Assembly (NCBI GenBank): GCA_030688365.1
Contig: JAUYIE010000021.1
Span: 9,866-73,865 of the forward strand
Origin: a bacterium
Lineage (GTDB): Bacteria; Patescibacteriota; Patescibacteriia; JACQRZ01
DNA: 64,000 bases
Reading direction: 5' to 3'
Shown here: in pieces, positions 3,044-13,884 of the stretch
Position numbering within the stretch: position 1 is the first letter of the stretch
How the letters are laid out: every line of letters begins with the position of its first letter
Made by a program: the position numbers and the translations under genes
Notes under the pieces: generated by a model
What the model saw: only the letters and a program-made list of their open reading frames with translations
Database searches by the model: none
Told to the model about the DNA's origin: nothing

Positions 3044-4072
3044 ATGTCGGATATGGAACAACCAAACTCACAAATCGTCATATATAAAGATCAGGATGGA
3101 AACATTAAGATTGATGTTCGTTTTGATGGTGATACCGTGTGGTTGACGCAAAATGCCATGGCAGAGCTTTTTCAGACAACAAAGCAAAATGTCAGTCAGC
3201 ATATCAAAAATATCACAGAAGATGGAGAATTATCAGAAAATTCAACTGTAAAGAATTTCTTTACAGTTCAAAAAGAAGGCGAAAGAGAGGTTGGGCGGGA
3301 TGTGGAATTCTACAATCTAGACCTCATTATCGCTGTTGGGTACCGAGTAAAGTCATCACAAGGCACCGCATTTCGCAGGTGGGCAACGGAACGGCTTTCA
3401 GAGTACATCGTCAAAGGCTTTGTGATAGACAGTGAACGGTTAAAGAATCCTGATCTTCCTTTTGACTATTTTGAGGAGCTTGAACGGACTATCGCGGATA
3501 TTCGTACCAGCGAAAAGAGATTTTATCGCAAAATAACTGATATCTACGCGACGAGTGTAGATTATGACCCCACAAACGATCAAAGTATTCTGTTTTTTCA
3601 AACAGTGCAGAACAAAGTCCATTATGCTGTGACCGGTAGTACCGCAGCAGAAATTGTCGTGGGTAGGATAGACAGTGGTAAAAAGAATCTAGGACTGGAA
3701 TCTTTTAGAGGTACCAAGCCTACAAAAGAAGAAGCCATTATTGCAAAAAATTATTATAACAAGGAAGAGCTAGCACAACTCAATGCACTGGTTGAACAGT
3801 ATTTGATATTCGCAACAGAACAAGCTCGTCGCAGGGTGCCCATGACAATGAATGATTGGGTAGAAAAACTGCATGGATTTTTGACTATCAATGATAGGAA
3901 TATCTTGCATGATGCGGGCAAGATTTCTCACGAATTGATGGTAGAAATTGCTGGGGCGAAATTTGATGAGTATAAGCATATGGAAGCAAGGCAAGATGTT
4001 GATTTTGACGAGGTCGCACTAAAGGCGATTGAGAGTGCAAGAGGGAGAGATATTTCCAAAAAGATTATATGA
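3044..4072 (+). CDS. RhuM-family protein (virulence protein RhuM-like)
   Basis: The core 'NLDLIIAVGYRVKSSQGTAFRRWATERL' is characteristic of the RhuM family (PF13310-like). Confidence 0.65.
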   Translation: MSDMEQPNSQIVIYKDQDGNIKIDVRFDGDTVWLTQNAMAELFQTTKQNVSQHIKNITEDGELSENSTVKNFFTVQKEGEREVGRDVEFYNLDLIIAVGYRVKSSQGTAFRRWATERLSEYIVKGFVIDSERLKNPDLPFDYFEELERTIADIRTSEKRFYRKITDIYATSVDYDPTNDQSILFFQTVQNKVHYAVTGSTAAEIVVGRIDSGKKNLGLESFRGTKPTKEEAIIAKNYYNKEELAQLNALVEQYLIFATEQARRRVPMTMNDWVEKLHGFLTINDRNILHDAGKISHELMVEIAGAKFDEYKHMEARQDVDFDEVALKAIESARGRDISKKII

Positions 4073-4485
4073 AAAAAGGACTTATCGTACATGCGCTTCT
4101 CTACAACCAAAAACACGAGGTGCTTTTGATTCGCAGATCTTTGGTAGACGATGTCTTGCCCGGTATGTGGGATATCCCAGGAGGAACGCTTGAAGACGGA
4201 GAGGATTTACAAAATGGCGCTGTCCGAGAGGTAAAAGAGGAAACGGGCTTAGATATCAAAAATCTTAATTTGTTTCACTACACTTCAAACGTTGACCAGA
4301 CAAAGGATATTGAGTTTATTCGGCTTATTTTTATCGGTCAGTGTGATGATACCGAGATAGTGTTAAATCCAGAGGATCATGATGAATATCGCTGGGTGTC
4401 GTTGGATAAACCACTTGAAGATATTGCGATGGTGGAGTATTTGCCTGATCTTATTCAAATGCTTCAAACAAGGGACATCAATTGA
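4069..4485 (+). CDS. NUDIX hydrolase
   Basis: Nudix box 'GGTLEDGEDLQNGAVREVKEETGL' (Gx5Ex7REVxEExGx). Its start overlaps the RhuM stop (ATGA). Confidence 0.75.
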   Translation: MKKGLIVHALLYNQKHEVLLIRRSLVDDVLPGMWDIPGGTLEDGEDLQNGAVREVKEETGLDIKNLNLFHYTSNVDQTKDIEFIRLIFIGQCDDTEIVLNPEDHDEYRWVSLDKPLEDIAMVEYLPDLIQMLQTRDIN

Positions 4486-4497
4486 TCAGGTATTATC

Positions 4498-5118
4498 CTA
4501 CAAAATAATCACCTCGCCATCTGCAAGCGTTTTAAATGGCATGTTATTTTTTGTCATATATTCAACGGTTTTTTGTGCGCTTTCGGATTCTATATGATCT
4601 GAATTGTAATGCGGGATTATGGAATACGGGAGAATATGTAGACCACCCCAAATAACTTCCAAGTTGTCCCCATAGGGTTTTGCTGTCGGATCATCCATGA
4701 GTTCCATGCCATGTAACGTTGGTGCCAATACACAGATGCCAGCGCTATATCCTCCATACAGCAGATCATCTCTGGTGGCTAATTTTTTTATAATCACATC
4801 AAAACCGCTCATCCTCATCGCTTGTCTCAAGACGAAAATGTTGCCTCCGCGCACCCAGATGACGCCAGATTCAGAAAGTTTTTTTTCTAATTCAGTCGGG
4901 TTATCAAAATAATCGCGTAGATCAACGAGCTCAACATCTAGGCCGAGCGTTGTAAGTTGATTCATATCAGATTGTTCACTGATTTTGCGTCTTTCTAGAC
5001 CATCTGAAAAATCAAGAGCGTTGGGGATATAAGCAGTTTTTTTGTTCACTGCAGACAGCAGTGTTTTCAGCTTTTCAATCTCGTTTCCCAGTTTGTATGA
5101 GGATAGGTAGAGTTTCAT
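4498..5118 (-). CDS. Peptidase family S51 (dipeptidase E / cyanophycinase-like)
   Basis: 'YGGYSAGICVLAPTL' carries a GxSAG nucleophile elbow. 'IWVRGGNIFVLRQAMRMSGF' is typical of S51. Confidence 0.6.
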   Translation of the reverse strand: MKLYLSSYKLGNEIEKLKTLLSAVNKKTAYIPNALDFSDGLERRKISEQSDMNQLTTLGLDVELVDLRDYFDNPTELEKKLSESGVIWVRGGNIFVLRQAMRMSGFDVIIKKLATRDDLLYGGYSAGICVLAPTLHGMELMDDPTAKPYGDNLEVIWGGLHILPYSIIPHYNSDHIESESAQKTVEYMTKNNMPFKTLADGEVIIL

Positions 5119-5122
5119 AGAA

Positions 5123-5872
5123 TTATTTTCTCAACAAATCAGAAAGTGGTAAGAATTTTTTCTCTTTTGCAATCAAAATGTGATGAAACGTTCCCTTTGC
5201 CCAAAAAACCTTATACGCATTTGCCATTTTCTTGGAAGAAATAATGCGGTACGTCTCATCAATGATTTCGATCGCGCAACAGTTATCAATCGCAACTGCT
5301 ATTCCCTCTGTCTTTTTCATCATTTTCTTCAGGTCAGATTTACGGTCTTTTTCAAAATCATAATGAGGACATAAAAGGGCAGAGACCAAGTTTAATCCTG
5401 AAACTTTTATCAATGGGGCGTTCGGGTTTTTCATTTTTCGAGAATCAGAGTTGCCGTACTTGAACCAGCAAATCGCGCCCGCGCTCAATCCAGAAAGCAC
5501 GATTCCTTTGTCGTATGCCTGCCTTAAGAGTACAACCACGCCGTATTTTTTCCACGCCTGCATCATTTTCAACGTATCTCCACCCCCAACGTAGATAATA
5601 TCAGCAGACAAAATTTTATTCTTTATTTCTTGTTGTGTGAGTGCGCCCTTCAGAAGATACAACACTTCTGTTCTACACCCCAGCTTTTTACCAAAATAGT
5701 TTTTGACTGTTTCAAAATAGGATTCACTGTCCCCGCTGGCGGTAGGAATAAAAAGCAGAACAGGATTTTTCTTGCCAGTCAGTTTGATAATTTCTTTATC
5801 AATTTTTGTTGTCTCAATGGGATAGCCTGGTCTGCCTATATCCCCACCACCGATGGCAATGATTTTCTTCAT
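5123..5872 (-). CDS. Peptidase family S51 (dipeptidase E / cyanophycinase-like), second tandem copy
   Basis: Motifs 'IIAIGGGD', 'IIYVGGGDTLKMMQAW' and 'LSGLSAGAICWF' are present. It is a paralog of the adjacent gene. Confidence 0.65.
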   Translation of the reverse strand: MKKIIAIGGGDIGRPGYPIETTKIDKEIIKLTGKKNPVLLFIPTASGDSESYFETVKNYFGKKLGCRTEVLYLLKGALTQQEIKNKILSADIIYVGGGDTLKMMQAWKKYGVVVLLRQAYDKGIVLSGLSAGAICWFKYGNSDSRKMKNPNAPLIKVSGLNLVSALLCPHYDFEKDRKSDLKKMMKKTEGIAVAIDNCCAIEIIDETYRIISSKKMANAYKVFWAKGTFHHILIAKEKKFLPLSDLLRK

Positions 5873-5950
5873 ATGGTGTACTTTTTAAAGCGTTTATTAT
5901 GATATAGTGTAGTAGTAATGACTTATTAATACAAATAGAAAGGAGGAGAA

Positions 5951-6871
5951 ATGCTAGACACCCATACAATAGACCAAATAATACACCAAATTGAAGGATT
6001 GCTTGGTATTACCATCGTTGAAAGGGAGCTGTCAGATTTGCAAGGTACTGATGGCCATGTATTTATCGTTACTGACAAGGATGGGACTGAATATGTTATA
6101 AAATACAGCCCCAATGCAATAAATGACGTGGTCGCTCTTAATCTGATCAAAGAAAAAAATCTTACCATCCCAGTGCCGAAGTTATTCGGATATTTTTCTT
6201 TCAAAGGAAAAACGGTTGTTGTTTTAGAAAAAATTACGTTTCCTTTATTGGATCAAACATCAAGGGAAAGATACCACCTGTATATCAAATCGATGATAGA
6301 CCATTTACAAAAAATACATACGGTCAAATCAAAGATTGCCGGGTTTGTCTCAAATCAAGAAAAACGGATGTCTTGGCAACAGTTTTTGTTAAATATGTAT
6401 ACAGAAAAGAGTCCATTTTTTGATTGGAGAGAGATAGTGTCTCGTGATGGTGTAGATACAAAACTCGTGCAAAAGGCACTTACCGCCGTAGTAAAAAAGA
6501 TTGAAAATCAAAAATTTCTTGACCCGACATATTCTCTATTACATACGGATTTTAATCAAAAAAATCTTTTTGTAGACCAAAAATTACATGCAATTTCCTC
6601 TATCACTGATTGGAGTGAAGCCATGTTCGGGGATCCGCTATATGATTTTGTGAGGATTAGGTTGTATATTTTTCATTTTAATTTGAAGCATGGTTCACGT
6701 AAAACATACTTTGACCTATTGCATCTCACCAAAGAAGAAAAAGAACGAGAGGAACTATATTTTGTCATCCAGATTTTAAACTACATAGGATGGTATTCGG
6801 AAGTAAAAAATGATTTTAATACCTCACGATTGGCGATGCATCAAGAGTTTTTGAAAAATTATCCGTGGTAG
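5951..6871 (+). CDS. Phosphotransferase enzyme family (APH-like small-molecule kinase)
   Basis: The Brenner-like motif 'LLHTDFNQKNLFVD' (HxDxxxxN) and the activation segment 'ITDWSEAMFGDPLYDF' (the DxG/DFG equivalent of APH kinases) are present. Confidence 0.65.
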   Translation: MLDTHTIDQIIHQIEGLLGITIVERELSDLQGTDGHVFIVTDKDGTEYVIKYSPNAINDVVALNLIKEKNLTIPVPKLFGYFSFKGKTVVVLEKITFPLLDQTSRERYHLYIKSMIDHLQKIHTVKSKIAGFVSNQEKRMSWQQFLLNMYTEKSPFFDWREIVSRDGVDTKLVQKALTAVVKKIENQKFLDPTYSLLHTDFNQKNLFVDQKLHAISSITDWSEAMFGDPLYDFVRIRLYIFHFNLKHGSRKTYFDLLHLTKEEKEREELYFVIQILNYIGWYSEVKNDFNTSRLAMHQEFLKNYPW

Positions 6872-6874
6872 TCT

Positions 6875-7213
6875 ATGACACATCATAAACTCAAAAACGA
6901 CAAGTACGTAAAAGCTCGCGATGGCAATTCGTATTTTTTAGATCTCTACTGCAGTCGGTGTGAGCAATTTCTTGTTCTCTATCAAAAGGACGGGCAAGGT
7001 GCATTGATACGGCTGTATCTTGATCGATTTTTTGCCCCGAAAGAATTAGCAGTATTACAGTACGATTGTAAAGAAAAGAAGGATATGCCTAATCTCAAAT
7101 GTTCAAAATGTGGCGTACTTATTGCCACACCAATGATGTATGAGTCTGAACAGAGACCGGCATTTCGTTTGATTCGCGGTGCATTCGTAAAGAAAATGAC
7201 CATTGACAAATAA
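6875..7213 (+). CDS. Zinc-ribbon hypothetical protein
   Basis: Two CxxC pairs (CSRCEQF ... CSKCGV). It starts 3 nt after the APH-like gene. Confidence 0.4.
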   Translation: MTHHKLKNDKYVKARDGNSYFLDLYCSRCEQFLVLYQKDGQGALIRLYLDRFFAPKELAVLQYDCKEKKDMPNLKCSKCGVLIATPMMYESEQRPAFRLIRGAFVKKMTIDK

Positions 7214-7258
7214 GATAGTGAATATTAGGCTTGTGTGTAGTTTAACTTTCTTGTATTT

Positions 7259-7846
7259 ATGATATTTAGAGGAGTAGTCAGTCAGGATGGAATACGATGT
7301 GATGTACACCATATGGATGTAGATCATTTTAATGATATCCCCGACAATTTAAAATTGAAGGCACATGCCGTATGCTTATATAATGGTAAAATATTGTTAG
7401 TCCATCATCCAGAATGGGGTATCTGGAGTATTCCTGGTGGCACTCGTGAGCGGGGGGAATCAATAGAAGAAACCTTAGTAAGGGAAATATTAGAGGAAGC
7501 GAATTGTAAGGTGATTGATTGTCAACCCATAGCTTTTCAAAAAGTTGTTAATCCTAGCGATGAAACACTGTATTATCGATTACAATATTTCTGTAATGTT
7601 ATACCTGTGGAAGATTTTAAGGAAGATCCTGCCGGAAATATAGATAAAATCGCATGGATACAACCACGTGATTTTGAATTATATATCGAAAATAAGGAGT
7701 TTAAAATAATAGTGATCAGACGTGCGCTTGAATTATTAAAAAATATGAAGATCAAAAAGCTCGATAAAAATATTATCAGAGTTATTGCTAACGAGAAAGA
7801 CTATATCCTTGCAGAACCGATGGATTTTAGAAAAGAGTTTAGTTAA
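7259..7846 (+). CDS. NUDIX hydrolase, second copy
   Basis: Nudix box 'GGTRERGESIEETLVREILEEANCKV'. Confidence 0.7.
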   Translation: MIFRGVVSQDGIRCDVHHMDVDHFNDIPDNLKLKAHAVCLYNGKILLVHHPEWGIWSIPGGTRERGESIEETLVREILEEANCKVIDCQPIAFQKVVNPSDETLYYRLQYFCNVIPVEDFKEDPAGNIDKIAWIQPRDFELYIENKEFKIIVIRRALELLKNMKIKKLDKNIIRVIANEKDYILAEPMDFRKEFS

Positions 7847-8561
7847 AATTTGCTATAGACCATTTTTTGGGAAGTGGTCTTGTTTTTGTGTAAATGTATT
7901 TTATTAAAGCCGATAAAATTTTTATTTTGTCTTGCCTATCGGTGGCAAGATAAAAATGATTAACGAGATTTCCAAATCTTTTATCAATATCATTAAGTCG
8001 TGCGTGTAATTCCTTTGGTTGTCTAAGAAAATCTCCATTTATTTTTAGAAATAGTTCCATAATATTATTTATCAAAAGTTGGCTGTCTACGCCAAACGCC
8101 ACAGAGTCTTGATTTTTTGCGTCTCGTCGTACTTCACCCAAGAAATCGTCTATAGAATATTTATGCATTAAGATTTCCTCTTTTGTATATTTTGTCTTGA
8201 GATTGAGATTTGACTTTGCAATTGCTTGTATTTTCGCAATAGAGGCGCTCCTTTGAAAAAGTATTGCACTATGTGCCAGCATGTGAGAAGTATTTCTCTT
8301 TAAGGCATTTTTATCTTCATTCAAATATTTGTTTGTTTCATTTATAGGTTCAATGATTATATCAATTGGAATGCCGTACTTTATCAGACCTATTCGAGCA
8401 AATTTCGCAAGTTTACGTACTATTATATAGAAATCAATATCAGAATATTCGTCGGAGGTATCTCGTGCCGCAGATCCAAATACCATAATACCCAAGACAT
8501 TTTTGTCTGGTTTGTATTGTGTGACTATCTCGTCGTAGATCTTTTGAACAATTTTTTGCAT
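7839..8561 (-). CDS. Nucleotidyltransferase of the Pol-beta superfamily (ANT/KNTase/Lnu-like, or a minimal NTase)
   Basis: The N-terminal 'GIMVFGSAARDTSDEYSDIDFYIIV' carries the GS...DxD motif of the NTase fold. The C-terminal ~140 aa is helical. Confidence 0.65.
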   Translation of the reverse strand: MQKIVQKIYDEIVTQYKPDKNVLGIMVFGSAARDTSDEYSDIDFYIIVRKLAKFARIGLIKYGIPIDIIIEPINETNKYLNEDKNALKRNTSHMLAHSAILFQRSASIAKIQAIAKSNLNLKTKYTKEEILMHKYSIDDFLGEVRRDAKNQDSVAFGVDSQLLINNIMELFLKINGDFLRQPKELHARLNDIDKRFGNLVNHFYLATDRQDKIKILSALIKYIYTKTRPLPKKWSIANFN

Positions 8562-8599
8562 AAAAAAAAGATTAAGGTTAGTTTAACACTGAACCTTAA
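8562..8599 (-). terminator. Intrinsic terminator downstream of the small-peptide ORF / rSAM operon on the minus strand
   Basis: Stem TTAAGGTT (8572-8579) pairs with AACCTTAA (8592-8599) around a 12-nt loop. On the minus transcript it is followed by a U-run of 8-9 (the A-run at 8562-8570). Confidence 0.55.
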
Positions 8600-8614
8600 T
8601 CCTGTTAAGCCATT

Positions 8615-8689
8615 TTACTTGCAGTTACTTGGTTTCTTGCAAGTTTTTCCTGGCTTTATCACTGGTAGTGATATAACAATTATTTCCAT
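8615..8689 (-). CDS. 24-aa small peptide, MEIIVISLPVIKPGKTCKKPSNCK. It is a candidate precursor or substrate peptide of the adjacent rSAM/SPASM enzyme.
   Basis: Hand translation of the minus strand. The Shine-Dalgarno AAAGGAGGTG ends 6 nt before the ATG (8687-8689). The ORF begins 12 nt after the rSAM stop codon (8702-8704) and an intrinsic terminator follows. It is under 60 aa and so is absent from the ORF track. Confidence 0.5.
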   Translation of the reverse strand: MEIIVISLPVIKPGKTCKKPSNCK

Positions 8690-8701
8690 TTTGCACCTCC
8701 T

Positions 8702-10123
8702 TTATATAGATTGAGGAAGCGTTACCTCGATAGACGCCTCCAATAATTGATCTTTTAATATTTCTTTAGTTATATCACGATAAAAATTGCACATTCGTTC
8801 AATTTTTGTCGTACCGGTAGCTTTTGCAAATTCATGAGTTATTTTGCAGCCTCCACCACAGTGACCTTCAATCATGCATCCCTTGCACATTTCCATAACT
8901 CCAGTGAGATGATCCTCAACCAACTTATAATATGGACTTCCGAACGAATAAAAAGACTGTATTGTAGCAATGTCTCCAATCTGATCCACACTATAGCCAC
9001 AGCTATAGATTTTCCCCGATGGAGCAACGCATATACTATTACCCTCGATCGCACCACAGAATGTCACACGTTTATCAAGCGGAGAGTCACTTAAGTTTTC
9101 TGCAGGACGAGACCAAAATCCAGGAACATCGACCCCTAATCGTTTTCCATATCTACGCATGTTCATTAATTTGGAAATGATCTCATATATAGGAATACTT
9201 ACCATACCTATGACATCTATGTCAATTCTTACATTGGTCATGCCGTGTGTAACTGCCCAATCAATTAGAGACTCATTCAGTTCATGAAAATTGTTTTCCG
9301 TAATCGTTACCGCAATGCCATTGAGTGGATATCCTACTCTTTTTAGGGTTTGAAACCCATCAGTGATCTCACCGTAGGTACCACGCCCTGACTTTGTCAT
9401 TCTGACGCTATCGTTCCCTTTTTGTAACCCATCAAGACTTGACGCAATATCAACATTATATTGCTTCAGGGTTTCGGCAATTTCTTTTGTCATCAGAGAT
9501 GCATTTGTATTTATGGAGAAGTGTATATCAAATGTGCCACTATACGCTTCATCGCAGTATTCAATAATTTGTTTTATTACCTGCCAGTTGAGAAGTGGTT
9601 CACCTCCTCCAAAGTTGATTTCCGCAACATGTTTGTTGTGTATTTTAAGGATATCTAAGTATTTATCCACAGTCTTTTTTGCCAAATGGAATGACATGAA
9701 TTTTTTAGGACTGTTGATTCGATCAGAGATTTCCAGGTTGTTGAAATGTATACAGTAGGTGCAACGAAAGTTGCAGGATTCGCACATAATCAGCTCAAGA
9801 TATTCTACCAGGGATCCATTAGTAATATCTATTTTTCTGCGTTGCATCGTTTCTACAAGTAGTTTTCTCTCATCAAGTGTTTTTGGTTTGAGAAAATAAC
9901 AACGAACCAATTCGTCAATTGCCTCCTGTCCCGCGTTTGTTTCATGTGTGTCATACCACGAAAGAAGTGTTTTTGGTTCCAAAAAATAGTTGAGAAATTC
10001 TAATGTTGCAGAGGAAACAATTTTTGGATATCCAAATAAAGAATGCCAAATTACGAAAACACCATCGTTCTCAATCTGTTGAATGAATGCCGATCTAACT
10101 AATACATTATCGTTGTCTACCAT
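8702..10123 (-). CDS. Radical SAM / SPASM-domain enzyme (peptide-modifying maturase-like, anSME family). It has a ~125-aa N-terminal extension that may be an RRE-like domain.
   Basis: 'CNFRCTYC' (CxxxCxxC) lies at about residue 126. The C-terminal SPASM is 'CGAIEGNSICV...GKIYSC' plus 'CKGCMIEGHCGGGC' (exact Cx2Cx5Cx3C), with a later Cys in 'ERMCNF'. The Shine-Dalgarno AAGGAAAAAA lies upstream of the ATG. Confidence 0.85.
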   Translation of the reverse strand: MVDNDNVLVRSAFIQQIENDGVFVIWHSLFGYPKIVSSATLEFLNYFLEPKTLLSWYDTHETNAGQEAIDELVRCYFLKPKTLDERKLLVETMQRRKIDITNGSLVEYLELIMCESCNFRCTYCIHFNNLEISDRINSPKKFMSFHLAKKTVDKYLDILKIHNKHVAEINFGGGEPLLNWQVIKQIIEYCDEAYSGTFDIHFSINTNASLMTKEIAETLKQYNVDIASSLDGLQKGNDSVRMTKSGRGTYGEITDGFQTLKRVGYPLNGIAVTITENNFHELNESLIDWAVTHGMTNVRIDIDVIGMVSIPIYEIISKLMNMRRYGKRLGVDVPGFWSRPAENLSDSPLDKRVTFCGAIEGNSICVAPSGKIYSCGYSVDQIGDIATIQSFYSFGSPYYKLVEDHLTGVMEMCKGCMIEGHCGGGCKITHEFAKATGTTKIERMCNFYRDITKEILKDQLLEASIEVTLPQSI

Positions 10124-10194: not shown

Positions 10195-10404
10195 GCAACC
10201 CGTGTAAATATACACGGTCTGTTGGATACAATTGTAATCGAGGCATAAAAATATAAATATACTGTCTAGTTTGTGGTAGTCAAAAATAGGTCAGGCTTGA
10301 TAATATAATATTATCTCCATATTTTTGGGCGAAAAAAGATGTAAAGTGTGTGGATAACAAATGACCTAATAAGGCGTTTTTCGGTGAAAAACCTTTGTTT
10401 TACA

Positions 10405-10480
10405 AAAATTGACATGGCATTGACAAACCCATGTTCTTGTGATACGAGAAGGTGTAGGATTATATATAAGGTATATAAAG
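10405..10480 (+). promoter_or_regulatory. AT-rich promoter-like region for the methyltransferase gene
   Basis: Two TTGACA hexamers (10409-10414 and 10420-10425) and TATATA/TATAAA boxes (10461-10479). The exact -35/-10 pairing is ambiguous. Confidence 0.3.
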
Positions 10481-10518
10481 GGTTAGACCTTTTAAAATTA
10501 AAAAAGGAGCATTGGCTA

Positions 10519-11646
10519 ATGTCAAATTTAGAAAAAAAATTAGATACAAAACAAAACATCGAAAGCACTGCACGGATAAATTCCATTGCATTGTATGTGC
10601 CTGAAAAAAGCACAAGCGAATTATTGGATGGCGTAGAAGTTACTGTATATGGTAAAAATGGATTTGAGTATAAAAATCCACTATTCTGGTTCGTTTATGA
10701 CCGCATCGTAGGAAAATGTCTTGAAAATGTGGTTGAACGCAAAACAAGGAACATTCTTGGTAAATATCTCAGTGCTGATGAAAAGAAGACATTAGTTCAC
10801 TTGGATACTAGAACTACAACATTGGGACCATATCGTAGAAATTTTGGATTGAAGCAAGACTGGGCAGAGATATTTTTGCTCGAAACTACTTTGTTTAATA
10901 GAGGTTCACCGGTTATGAAACACCTCTGTGAGAATGTGGCGAATGCGCCCGGTCTTGATGATGTGTATAATAACAATGGTGGTTTTGCATGGAATGGACT
11001 TAAAATATTTCCATTGTCCGGCGAGCCAGACCTATTGTCAAATATATACATGGACAAGCCTGAGGCGCAGGGTACCAGAAATCGTTATTACATGCTTTTA
11101 AGATTATATGACCAGTTTGGGGGTGGTAAAACACTATCAATCGCTTGCGGGTCTGCACAGCCATTAATTCATGCTGTGAATAGATTTGTAAGTGAAAAAC
11201 ACTATAATTTAGATAACACAACATTAGTTTTGACTGACCAAGATGCTCGTAGTTTAGATTTGGCTAGATTAAGGGCCAAACAGGCAAATATTGAAGATAG
11301 GGTTCAATTCGTCCAATCTTCGTATCTGGAACTAGGCGATGCATTAGGAAATGAAAAATTTGATATTGTTGAGGCATGTGGTATAGCCGACTATCTGCCG
11401 GACAAATATTTCAAATCTTTAGTGGAAAAGGCAATGAGTTATTTGAACGTTGGTGGAAAGTTACTCATTTCTAATATGATGCCCGGGGTGTGGTCTTCTT
11501 TTATCAGAAGAACTTACAACTGGGAGATGATTTATAGAACAACACATCAGGTTGCAGAATTATTGAAAGAATCCGGGCAGAAAGATATACGCATTTATGT
11601 TGAACCGTGGAAGGTTCACATGATTGCGGTCGTTACAAAACATTAA
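10519..11646 (+). CDS. Class I SAM-dependent methyltransferase, O-methyltransferase-like
   Basis: Motif I-like 'LSIACGSAQPLIHAV', 'LVLTDQDARSLDLARL', 'FDIVEACGIADYLPD' and 'LNVGGKLLISNM'. The start is chosen at the ATG preceded by AAAAAGGAG. The ORF track extends it to 10348. Confidence 0.65.
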   Translation: MSNLEKKLDTKQNIESTARINSIALYVPEKSTSELLDGVEVTVYGKNGFEYKNPLFWFVYDRIVGKCLENVVERKTRNILGKYLSADEKKTLVHLDTRTTTLGPYRRNFGLKQDWAEIFLLETTLFNRGSPVMKHLCENVANAPGLDDVYNNNGGFAWNGLKIFPLSGEPDLLSNIYMDKPEAQGTRNRYYMLLRLYDQFGGGKTLSIACGSAQPLIHAVNRFVSEKHYNLDNTTLVLTDQDARSLDLARLRAKQANIEDRVQFVQSSYLELGDALGNEKFDIVEACGIADYLPDKYFKSLVEKAMSYLNVGGKLLISNMMPGVWSSFIRRTYNWEMIYRTTHQVAELLKESGQKDIRIYVEPWKVHMIAVVTKH

Positions 11647-11721: not shown

Positions 11722-13884
11722 ATGACATACTATTCCATTACCTCACTAATAAATTTTCTAGTCAGTTTTGGACTCGGTTTTTTTATTTTGACAAGGAGAG
11801 AAAAGACTCGATTACACAAATTAGTTGCATTTTTTTGTTTTGCTATATTTTTTTGGAGTTTCTTTTATTTTTTATGGCAAATTACTGAAACAAAAGAATA
11901 TGCACTTTGGTTTACACGTTTATTAATGGTGGGTGCTATTCTTGCCCCCGTTGCATATTGTAAGGTTGTTCTTGCATTTCTGGATTTAGAACAAGTACAT
12001 GCACGTTTGGTGAGAGTGTCATATATTTTAACTGGATTTTTTCTCATTTTACTACCAACAAAATTAATGGTACTTAAAATAGAGGCCGTACCAGGGTTTG
12101 AATTTTGGCCAAAACCAGGCTTATTTTTTATTCCTTTTTTAGTATTTTTTTTCTCATTAACATTTTTTAGTATTTATTTGACAGCCAAATCAGTATTGAA
12201 CGAAAAATCATCATACAAAAGTCGCCAAGCTAGATTAATGTTACTAGGAATAGCATTGACATTTATTGGGGGATCCACAAATTATTTTCTTTGGTTTGAT
12301 ATTAACATACCACCTTATGGTAACATTTTGGCTTGTAGTTATGTTATATTGACAACATATGCAATTTTGCGCCATCAGCTTATGGATATCAAGGTTGTTT
12401 TACGTAAGTATTCTGTATATTTCGTTTCCCTTTTTTCCGTCATCGCGCTTGCGGGATTGTTTCAATATGGATATAAAACGATCTTGGGTATCAGCAATTT
12501 TTATATCGATATCATCATCACCGGTCTTGCGGTGAGCATCTTTCCGGTGTTACGGTCGTATTATTATCGTTTTGCCAATACCTATCTTTTCACTTCGCTG
12601 TATGACACGAAGCAGGTTATTTCCAAACTAAGCGAAAAACTTCGCTCTACGCTGGAGACCGAGGAAATCTATCGCACGCTTTCCGACACTATCCAAAACG
12701 CGCTTCATATACGCAGTATTGGTCTTTTGACATACGACCATGACAAAGAAGAATACAGCATAGCCCAATGTGAAAGAGAAGAGACATGCAATCCGGTGGT
12801 GCAAAAATTAAATAAAAAATTTGTGGATTATTTGGTGACGCATGATCGGCCGATCCTCACTGCTGAAATAGATGATCGGTTTGCGGTGTTGAAGCGATTA
12901 TTGGCGCCCAGTACCGAAGTTCTTGTTCCTCTCAACCTCAAAGGCAAGCACATCGGGCTCATGCTGATAGGCCAAAAAGAGGCGAGTGATTCGTTTGATG
13001 ATGAAGATGTGAGTCTTCTTAAGATTGTGGGGTCGCAGACCGCTATTGCGCTGGAAAACGCGTTGTTGTATGGAGAAGCGCAACATTTCAATGAAGTGCT
13101 TAAGCAAAGGATCGCGCGTGCGACAAAGCAGTTGCGTTCGCAGAATGAAAAACTCAAAGAGCTGGACGAGATGAAAACCGAGTTCATCTCCATCGCATCG
13201 CACCAGCTTCGTACGCCGTTGACCGCGACAAAGTGGGCGTTGGATTTTTTGCTCAAGGGCGCGGATGGCAAGATAAATCCAAAACAGCGCGAGTCGCTGT
13301 CGGAACTTTCGGTCATGAATGTCCGCCTTATCACCTTGGTCAATGAGCTTCTCAATATTTCTCGTATTGACGAGGGACGCGTGAAGGTTGAGCCAAAGCC
13401 GACAAGTATCACAAAGGTGGTCAAAGAGATTTTGGCGGAGTTCATGCCTATCATTCGCAAAAAAGGTATTATTTTGCAAGAGCATTATGATACGGTGCCA
13501 CTCATCAAGCTGGATGCGGGTGTCATCGGCAAGGCGCTTTCCAATGTGTTGTCAAACGGCATAAAGTACAATACCGACGGCAAACATTTGTGGGTGGAGG
13601 TAGCCAAACACAAAGACGACGTCGCGATCATCGTGAAAGATGAAGGGATCGGCATCCCAACCAAAGAGCAGGATCATCTGTTCCAGAAGTTTTATCGCGC
13701 GTCAAACGCCATGACGTCAAACACGGAAGGGACGGGCTTTGGGCTGTATATCGCCAAATCCGCCATCGAGCTGTCAGGCGGAAGCATTTCTTTTGAATCA
13801 AAAGAGGGGGTGGGTACGACATTTACTGTCTTCGTGCCTCTCAAAGGCTCCCGCGCACGCAAAGGGGAGAAGAGTTTGGCATGA
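11722..13884 (+). CDS. Sensor histidine kinase with an N-terminal multi-TM domain, a GAF-like domain, HisKA and HATPase_c
   Basis: About 7 N-terminal TM helices. H-box 'FISIASHQLRTPLTA'. N/G boxes 'SNGIKYN' and 'GTGFGLYIAKS'. Confidence 0.85.
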   Translation: MTYYSITSLINFLVSFGLGFFILTRREKTRLHKLVAFFCFAIFFWSFFYFLWQITETKEYALWFTRLLMVGAILAPVAYCKVVLAFLDLEQVHARLVRVSYILTGFFLILLPTKLMVLKIEAVPGFEFWPKPGLFFIPFLVFFFSLTFFSIYLTAKSVLNEKSSYKSRQARLMLLGIALTFIGGSTNYFLWFDINIPPYGNILACSYVILTTYAILRHQLMDIKVVLRKYSVYFVSLFSVIALAGLFQYGYKTILGISNFYIDIIITGLAVSIFPVLRSYYYRFANTYLFTSLYDTKQVISKLSEKLRSTLETEEIYRTLSDTIQNALHIRSIGLLTYDHDKEEYSIAQCEREETCNPVVQKLNKKFVDYLVTHDRPILTAEIDDRFAVLKRLLAPSTEVLVPLNLKGKHIGLMLIGQKEASDSFDDEDVSLLKIVGSQTAIALENALLYGEAQHFNEVLKQRIARATKQLRSQNEKLKELDEMKTEFISIASHQLRTPLTATKWALDFLLKGADGKINPKQRESLSELSVMNVRLITLVNELLNISRIDEGRVKVEPKPTSITKVVKEILAEFMPIIRKKGIILQEHYDTVPLIKLDAGVIGKALSNVLSNGIKYNTDGKHLWVEVAKHKDDVAIIVKDEGIGIPTKEQDHLFQKFYRASNAMTSNTEGTGFGLYIAKSAIELSGGSISFESKEGVGTTFTVFVPLKGSRARKGEKSLA

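Follow-up and report, generated by a model that had tools for sequence, protein, structure and literature searches.

A radical S-adenosylmethionine (SAM)-SPASM enzyme together with a short precursor peptide is a well-known kind of system. Among the closest described examples, the cyclopropane synthases (TvgB/TigE) are defined by a strict GYW motif, the tyrosine of which ligates auxiliary cluster I (Aux I) and is essential in TigE, and the crystal structure of TigE shows an RRE (recognition element of RiPPs, peptides made by the ribosome and modified after translation) at residues 3-85 (PMC10878394). Here, a related locus is described from a stretch of 64,000 nucleotides (hereafter the window; contig JAUYIE010000021.1 of assembly GCA_030688365.1, forward-strand positions 9,866 to 73,865), in which a 24-codon open reading frame (ORF) lies directly downstream of a radical SAM gene. 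This ORF is a real gene, found at about 100 loci mostly of the Candidate Phyla Radiation (CPR)/Patescibacteria, because the ORF, its Shine-Dalgarno site, its frame and a core motif recur next to the orthologous enzyme. Judging from its sequence and context, it very probably encodes the translated precursor (substrate) peptide of the adjoining radical SAM/SPASM enzyme. The features of the cassette are the following:

8615..8689, minus strand: putative precursor peptide gene, 24 sense codons plus stop, product MEIIVISLPVIKPGKTCKKPSNCK (from translation, homologues and substitution pattern)
8694..8703 (8703..8694), minus strand: Shine-Dalgarno site AAAGGAGGTG (from sequence)
8621..8644, minus strand: conserved core T16-C-K-K-P-S-N-C23, proposed modification site (from logo and pN/pS)
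8689..~8645, minus strand: proposed leader, residues 1-14/15
8702..10123, minus strand: radical SAM/SPASM peptide maturase (predicted activity), 473 aa; Pfam Radical_SAM and Fer4_12, full-length match to TigE
7839..8561, minus strand: Polbeta-type nucleotidyltransferase (NTase), 240 aa, third cassette gene; Pfam Polbeta and NTP_transf_2

The peptide ORF extends from an ATG at 8689..8687 to a TAA stop at 8617..8615. Its Shine-Dalgarno site overlaps the TAA stop codon of the radical SAM gene (8704..8702), and its ATG follows that stop by 12 nt. The first-pass annotation had pointed out this ORF and its Shine-Dalgarno site directly downstream of the radical SAM gene, and both recur, in frame, beside the orthologous enzyme; the 6-nt spacing that it reported is right for the GGAGG core (8700..8696), whereas the 10-mer AAAGGAGGTG ends 4 nt before the ATG. 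It had also described the ORF as unannotated; indeed, only 25 such peptides are called among 5.8 billion proteins, all of them unnamed or 'hypothetical'. The check that it proposed, retention of the ATG, Shine-Dalgarno site and frame in orthologous loci, came out positive in 16/16 genome loci with a complete downstream region (18 fetched).

The Shine-Dalgarno match by itself is no proof of a gene, and conservation is the decisive evidence. In the 64 kb window, five GGAGG-N4-9-ATG sites were counted on both strands, versus 9.3 in shuffled sequence; three of the five stand before ORFs of 100 aa or more and a fourth belongs to the peptide ORF. Strong Shine-Dalgarno starts are thus scarce in this Patescibacteria window, rarer than in shuffled sequence. 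The motif-bearing ORF occurs once in the window. Read-through from the radical SAM gene into the peptide was considered and rejected, since the two frames match in the window but not in the homologues.

Relatives of the radical SAM enzyme were retrieved as 423 clusters at E <= 1e-10, of which the best 120 share 56-64% identity with it, and 18 genome loci, 80 metagenome loci and six more loci reached via individual proteins were fetched. Downstream regions were counted in the 98 loci where they are complete (L001-L099 less L082). A small ORF ending in C-x-x-P-[ST]-N-C-x-stop directly follows the radical SAM gene in 89/98 of them. The nine exceptions comprise three loci with a two-residue tail (L019, L092, L096), four in which the peptide has another place in the cassette (L016/70, L085/86), a contig end (L039) and a gene fragment (L018); L016, with its peptide elsewhere in the locus, and the fragment L018 both belong to the 18 genome loci. 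Exactly one core-motif ORF is present per locus in 96/99 loci, which are all those with sufficient sequence, and it ends with T-C-x-x-P-S-N-C plus one or two residues. Homologous ORFs are preceded by the same (G)AAAGGAGGTGA Shine-Dalgarno site. The substitution pattern is of the coding type: third-codon positions vary in 22/23 codons, versus 15 for position 1 and 14 for position 2, and the ratio of nonsynonymous to synonymous change (pN/pS) is 0.39 in frame and 0.18 over the last nine codons, against 1.42 and 1.35 in the other two frames. The peptide frame is under purifying selection.

The related loci encode 75 distinct peptides of 24-39 aa (typically 31-36), with 2-3 cysteines each. In a logo built from 74 of them, no variation is seen at Cys(-6), Asn(-1) and Cys(0), and 73/74 have the Pro, 73/74 the Ser and 69/74 the Thr. 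The family consensus is x-[LI]-K-V-K-x-L-P-K-[LR]-K-V-L-[C/N]-T-C-[Q/R]-x-P-S-N-C-[H>G,K,R,T], in which the leader part, x-[LI]-K-V-K-x-L-P-K-[LR]-K-V-L, corresponds to IIVISLPVIKPG in the window. The tail past the last cysteine differs between members (H, G, K, R, T, SR, KH, KT); K24, the last residue of the window peptide, stands at a position occupied by His in most relatives. No gaps are needed to align the last 23 residues of the window peptide, which does not have the basic N-terminal 10 residues of its relatives. No NCBIfam or Pfam family matches the window peptide or the five homologous peptides searched with it.

The linkage of enzyme and peptide is strict, and survives both rearrangement and divergence. 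Three gene orders were found: (i) radical SAM gene, peptide, NTase; (ii) peptide, NTase, radical SAM gene (L085/86); and (iii) radical SAM gene and NTase, with the peptide after them on the other strand (L016/70). DNA homology between loci is limited to about 2.4 kb, namely the radical SAM gene, the peptide and the next gene (NTase). Enzymes that are 48% (L100), 45% (L102) and 38% (L103) identical to that of the window keep peptides ending in ...NTCQWPSNCKT, ...NTCQSASNCH and ...CTCRAPSNCG, respectively. A sister enzyme (L104; 36% identity, with GTW for GFW) is accompanied by a different cysteine-rich peptide, ...WLCKGKDASCRSC; at this locus (L104:384-2000), the small ORF MKGKKVEVKNIKIEKPQTLDKPSDTNNRQKKWLCKGKDASCRSC follows the enzyme gene and has the same strong Shine-Dalgarno site, then comes a methyltransferase, and the small ORF probably represents another undescribed precursor family. 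At L100:4329-5371, another radical SAM gene, weakly matched by PqqD (RRE), comes after the cassette, which there consists of the radical SAM gene, the peptide and a GNAT-family acetyltransferase (GNAT).

The architecture of the enzyme, as read from its sequence and from structure prediction, is that of a peptide maturase: an RRE, a radical SAM domain and a SPASM domain. Indeed, (i) the N-terminal region (~1-95) is an RRE-like winged-helix domain, residues 5-~90 aligning to TigE 4-~90, with strands E7-10, E14-19 and E22-27 and helices H38-46, H53-59 and H66-74 in an AlphaFold2 (AF2) model (pLDDT about 75-90 in this region); (ii) the radical SAM cluster motif C117-x3-C121-x2-C124 (CxxxCxxC) is invariant in 25 aligned relatives, with a Pfam Radical_SAM E-value of 4e-20; (iii) the SPASM cysteines 356, 365, 375, 413, 416, 422, 426 and 445 line up with the TigE and CteB SPASM domains, the pattern C413-x2-C416-x5-C422-x3-C426 being invariant. 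The motif G335-F336-W337 (GFW) is likewise invariant among the 25 close relatives aligned. Among 50%-identity representatives, GFW occurs in nearly all of the close clade (~37-52% identity) and GYW only in representatives at ~26-37% identity; many other G-x-W variants exist. The closest solved relative is TigE (8VPO; phmmer E 2.7e-34, residues 5 to 454), and a Foldseek search with the AF2 model gave TM-scores of 0.69-0.73 to TigE, followed by CteB, then anSME and SuiB. The top NCBIfam matches are all peptide maturases (PapB, CcpM, HxsB, QhpD, anSME, CefB, SCIFF). The best, PapB (NF047865), scores 136.1 bits for a cutoff of 340, anSME (TIGR03942) 95.1 for 349 and the SCIFF maturase (TIGR03974) 91.3 for 425; since all scores are far below the cutoffs, the enzyme belongs to no curated NCBIfam family. 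The PqqE and MftC families are not among the 25 best NCBIfam matches listed. An exact-match look-up returned no record of the window enzyme sequence, and the anti-phage defence models of PADLOC gave generic matches only (the radical SAM enzyme to viperin models, the N-terminus of the NTase to candidate PDC-S09).

The proposal of the first-pass annotation that the ORF encodes the substrate of its radical SAM/SPASM neighbour is supported by this architecture and by the conservation of the locus. The two genes would be co-transcribed and translated from adjacent sites, because the Shine-Dalgarno site of the peptide overlaps the stop codon of the enzyme, and a terminator would close the unit after the peptide. 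The N-terminus of the peptide would act as a leader, docking as a beta-strand on the N-terminal RRE of the enzyme, which would then split SAM reductively and take a hydrogen atom within the core T-C-x-x-P-S-N-C. One or two intramolecular thioethers could result, linking a cysteine sulfur with a carbon atom of Asn and/or Thr or else with an alpha-carbon, giving a small stapled hairpin around the Pro-Ser turn, for instance with nested Cys17-Asn22 and Cys23-Thr16 rings. Thr is the thioether acceptor in thermocellin, the product of CteB, and Asn is that in the NxxC peptides made by NxxcB. By analogy with these acceptors, and because of the invariant Cys and Asn, the near-invariant Thr and the cysteine-rich sister peptide, thioether cross-linking in the C-terminal octapeptide is put forward as a tentative proposal, somewhat short of an even chance even if the peptide is the substrate. 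The NTase, or the GNAT in its place, sometimes with SAM methyltransferases, would act on the product, by tailoring or by self-protective inactivation.

Several observations weigh against this scheme or parts of it. The loci are not independent samples, many of them being close relatives. The Pfam SPASM and PqqD models do not match the enzyme at E <= 1, and the AF2 model, based on a 25-sequence alignment, is of middling quality overall (mean pLDDT 66) and of low quality near the cluster sites. The window peptide is an outlier, the shortest full-length member of its family (24 aa versus the typical length), and its leader is hydrophobic instead of basic; this copy could be degenerate, though its radical SAM and NTase genes are intact. 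As regards the thioethers, the closest characterised enzyme, TigE, makes C-C bonds on Val/Ile and no thioethers (PMC10878394). In addition, Cys365, which is absent in TigE and CteB and lies within 2 residues of the anSME Aux I ligand region, could complete an anSME-like all-cysteine Aux I, which would speak against a CteB-like binding of the substrate thiolate. This residue is common in the clade, and its candidacy as a defining fourth Aux I ligand was rejected because P0122/L100, whose peptide persists, has Val365. Finally, the cassette includes neither a conserved exporter nor a conserved leader protease, so that a secreted natural product is not assured.

The last point bears on the rival explanation that survives best, according to which the peptide is a scaffold for a small molecule or redox cofactor kept in the cell, as for PQQ, mycofactocin or pearlin, and finished by the NTase, GNAT or methyltransferases. 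The content of the cassette is relevant here. The NTase combines an N-terminal NTase domain, in which G29-S30...D41-x-D43 is invariant, with a C-terminal helical one, a layout like that of ANT(4')/Lnu; its matches to PDB profiles (HalB, kanamycin NTase, LinB) are weak, and its single-sequence AF2 model (pLDDT 38) was unusable. In the 92 loci with room downstream, the partner is the NTase only in 45, a 160-aa GNAT (Pfam) in the place of the NTase in 33, a GNAT followed by a C-terminal remnant of the NTase (or similar) in 7 and neither in 7. An NTase or GNAT is thus the third cassette gene in 85/92 loci, with the GNAT replacing the NTase in about 40%. Accessory class-I SAM methyltransferases also occur after the peptide, one of 212 aa in 13 loci and a convergent one of 267 aa in 9. 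Such variable group-transfer partners would suit a scaffold, as would the minimal cassette with neither exporter nor dedicated protease, the confinement of conservation to the last 8-9 residues with a varying tail after the last cysteine, and the spread of the cassette in genome-reduced CPR bacteria. Against it, the peptide bears no PQQ or mycofactocin signature (no E-x3-Y, no C-terminal GVY), peptidase, oxidase and glycosyltransferase partners are missing, unlike in pathways of the PQQ, mycofactocin and pearlin type, and the patchy, mobile-looking distribution is more in keeping with an accessory trait than with a core cofactor. Indeed, the window peptide has no tyrosine and its sole glutamate is residue 2, which leaves no PqqA-type Glu-x3-Tyr; the peptides end in ...PSNC[H/K/G] and not in the Gly-Val-Tyr of mycofactocin; and no MftB/C/D/E/F-type neighbours were found at the loci. 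A scaffold of this sort is therefore considered improbable, though it deserves mention.

In six loci (L004, L009, L012, L020, L024, L044), the 160-aa GNAT is followed by a remnant of the C-terminal half of the NTase; there, the catalytic domain of the NTase has apparently given way to the GNAT, a swap caught midway. Inserted methyltransferases were seen in L026, L030/31, L042, L046, L056/57, L073, L077, L094 and L004. A correlation between the type of partner (NTase or GNAT) and features of the peptide was sought, and none was found.

A second rival explanation, which has a small chance of being right, is that the peptide is not a substrate at all but an unmodified Cys/His partner of the enzyme that binds a metal or Fe-S cluster, a chaperone or a regulator. 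The two invariant cysteines and the frequent terminal His could bind a metal, and translational coupling would suit a stoichiometric partner, but the enzyme itself comes with an RRE domain for peptide binding and with a complete complement of cluster ligands, the terminal residue varies (H, G, K, R, T), which argues against a fixed metal site, and a small peptide encoded nearby is what all close characterised relatives modify (PMC10878394).

The region between the peptide and the NTase contains signals that bear on a third rival explanation, listed here together with a promoter match ahead of the radical SAM gene:

8562..8603, minus strand: intrinsic-terminator-like hairpin plus U8 (stem 8603..8568, U8 8569..8562)
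8580..8608, minus strand: promoter-like site inside the terminator, TTAACA, 17-nt spacer, TG-n-TAAACT (TGTTAAACT; consensus scan)
10256..10283, minus strand: best sigma-70-like promoter match upstream of the radical SAM gene, TTGACT, 16-nt spacer, TATATT (consensus match only)

The hairpin folds at -17.6 kcal/mol (z -2.9), and its T-run abuts the start codon of the NTase, the ATG of which follows without a Shine-Dalgarno site. A hairpin and T-run come after the peptide stop in 67/71 distinct tails of related loci, with differing stem sequences, and an extended -10-like TGnTAnAnT is found within the hairpin loop in 39/71 (e.g. L002, L007, L010, L043). These signals suggest that the third gene is transcribed separately, from a promoter nested in the terminator. 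The ORF might instead be a regulatory leader peptide, the translation of which controls terminator read-through into the NTase or GNAT, as in erm or cat attenuation: its stop lies 12-25 nt before the hairpin, the T-run of which adjoins the start of an ANT/Lnu-like NTase, and the downstream genes resemble drug-modifying enzymes. Yet the peptide tracks the radical SAM gene and not the NTase, being kept when a GNAT, a methyltransferase or neither comes next; it is convergent to the NTase in L016/70 and persists with distant radical SAM relatives; its amino acids are strictly conserved over 8 residues including two cysteines; and the promoter-like element in the hairpin points to independent transcription of the NTase. 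Attenuation is thus very improbable, marginally more so than an unmodified partner. That the ORF arose by chance with a fortuitous Shine-Dalgarno site, as its very short length and the frequency of such sites in shuffled sequence might suggest, is refuted by the conservation of ORF, frame, Shine-Dalgarno site and core across about 100 loci, the enzymes of which are as little as 38% identical, and by the coding-type substitutions, and has next to no probability left.

Around the cassette, an accessory patch of genes that resemble drug-modification functions extends over 3044-7846 of the window, and further genes lie on its other side:

3044-4072: RhuM, a relative of which is also present in L004
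4069-4485 and 7259-7846: NUDIX genes
4498-5872, minus strand: two Peptidase_S51 genes
5951-6871: APH-family phosphotransferase
10348-11646, plus strand: 432-aa methyltransferase-like ORF, unrelated to the 212-aa and 267-aa methyltransferases
11722-13884, plus strand: sensor histidine kinase (7TM-GAF-HisKA-HATPase), divergent, upstream of the cassette

The APH, NUDIX, Peptidase_S51, RhuM and 432-aa methyltransferase-like genes were rejected as parts of the system, as they are not conserved with the cassette. A histidine kinase-type gene occurs at the same relative position in 7 loci (L010, L036/38/98, L080, L089/90), the match being to the kinase core only; the kinase might be a sensor of the peptide, or a coincidence. 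Scans of the 64 kb window for tRNA genes and Rfam families gave no hits.

By sequence, the host of the window is a Patescibacteria bacterium: its UvrB is 100% identical to that of a Logan contig and 89% identical to a protein of a 'Patescibacteria group bacterium', and the next matches (~64-67%) are from Uhrbacteria and other Patescibacteria. Named relatives of the radical SAM enzyme belong to Saccharibacteria, Magasanikbacteria, Uhrbacteria, Brennerbacteria, Ryanbacteria and Peregrinibacteria; a few are from metagenome-assembled genomes labelled Omnitrophica, Gammaproteobacteria and Pseudonocardiaceae, labels that depend on binning. One of the latter (L014; DATATE010000211.1, 128 kb, flanks of 61-62% GC, binned as Pseudonocardiaceae) carries a full cassette of radical SAM gene, peptide MDAKVTPRKRPLIQVKPFPQVKVLATCQRPSNCH and NTase, and the family may extend beyond the CPR, unless this contig is mis-binned.

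Several cassettes adjoin tRNA genes. That of L002 is flanked by a 210-nt inverted repeat, 97% complementary (L002:3721-3930 and L002:6358-6567), with a palindromic core of ~60 nt (GGCTCGCGGGCAAAAAAT...ATTTTTTGCCCGCTCGCC) that also occurs on both sides of the cassette in L022, L044 and L046 and on one side in L003/L028, L008, L012, L023 and L024. Such a repeat, which the window does not have, could mark where a mobile cassette ends, or could terminate transcription in both directions. A scan of viral contigs returned no relatives and no sign of a phage origin.

The CPR/Patescibacteria are usually described as nearly devoid of biosynthetic capacity. A peptide-modifying cassette that is common among them, and moves between lineages, has been overlooked since its key gene of 24-39 codons is almost never called (25 peptide entries versus more than 400 enzyme clusters). 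A simple annotation rule, C-x-x-P-S-N-C-x-stop after a GFW-type radical SAM gene, recovers the peptide gene. The clade, which lies next to the cyclopropane synthases, could reveal new radical SAM chemistry, and the cassette raises the question of how an NTase or acetyltransferase acts on, or counteracts, a peptide product of ribosomal origin. A bolder scenario can be formulated, which taken as a whole is unlikely and is offered as speculation: a mobile three-gene cassette of Patescibacteria would make a structurally new radical SAM peptide from an 8-residue core, by a GFW chemistry unlike that of the GYW sisters and of known thioether formers; the product would be bioactive between episymbiont and host, as a toxin, signal or cofactor; and a dedicated enzyme of self-resistance or activation would be supplied by the NTase or GNAT, a combination without described precedent among radical SAM RiPPs.

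Compared with known systems, the third gene recalls the ANT(4')/Lnu NTases by its layout of a Polbeta domain plus a helical domain, with weak matches to kanamycin and lincosamide NTases, and the exchange of NTase for GNAT mirrors the alternative chemistries that inactivate one compound (resistance GNATs, or MccE in microcin C immunity). The similarity to ANT/Lnu extends, however, over no more than the catalytic part at the N-terminus, ~60 residues long (E about 1e-3 to 1e-4), and a tailoring role is equally possible. The anSME enzymes share a SPASM domain with two auxiliary clusters and a target cysteine near a proline; they differ by the absence of an RRE and by the sulfatase substrate motif C/S-x-P-x-R, versus the core C-x-x-P-S-N-C of the present family.

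In the PqqA/PqqE and MftA/MftC pairs, too, a radical SAM-SPASM enzyme modifies a very short peptide (23-30 aa) close to the C-terminus. The analogy with PqqA drawn in the first-pass annotation accordingly holds for size and goes no further, as signatures of PqqA, MftA and SCIFF are all missing from the peptide and its enzyme is not a PqqE. PqqD and MftB are separate proteins, whereas in the window cassette the RRE is fused to the enzyme, and the cassette has neither the Glu/Tyr pair, the C-terminal Val-Tyr nor the PqqB/C/F or MftD/E/F genes. The ranthipeptides and sactipeptides (SCIFF/CteA-CteB, PapA-PapB freyrasin, NxxcA-NxxcB) share a cysteine-containing C-terminal core and provide the model for the proposed chemistry, PapB being the best NCBIfam match and CteB the second-best structure for the window enzyme; SCIFF peptides have six cysteines in about 45 residues, as opposed to 2-3 cysteines without CxxxD/E repeats in the window family, for which a thioether is only proposed.

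The TvgA/TvgB and TigB/TigE systems come closest, with an RRE, radical SAM and SPASM domains, a G-x-W motif beside Aux I and a precursor encoded beside the enzyme, and TigE, a methyl-cyclopropylglycine synthase, is the closest solved relative by both sequence and fold, at an identity of only about 20-28%. In the clade of the window enzyme, however, the Tyr of the defining GYW is Phe (GFW). The Tvg and Tig precursors are made of repeats (TVGG, TIGSVS) over ~60 aa, in contrast to the single, non-repeated core with two cysteines of the window family, and their repeat motif with conserved Val/Ile has no counterpart in T-C-x-x-P-S-N-C. No description of this peptide family was found in the literature covered, which leaves out most subscription journals. 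Set against these systems, three things appear to be undescribed: the family of peptides, the clade of GFW enzymes and the constant presence of an NTase/GNAT partner in a cassette without protease or exporter.

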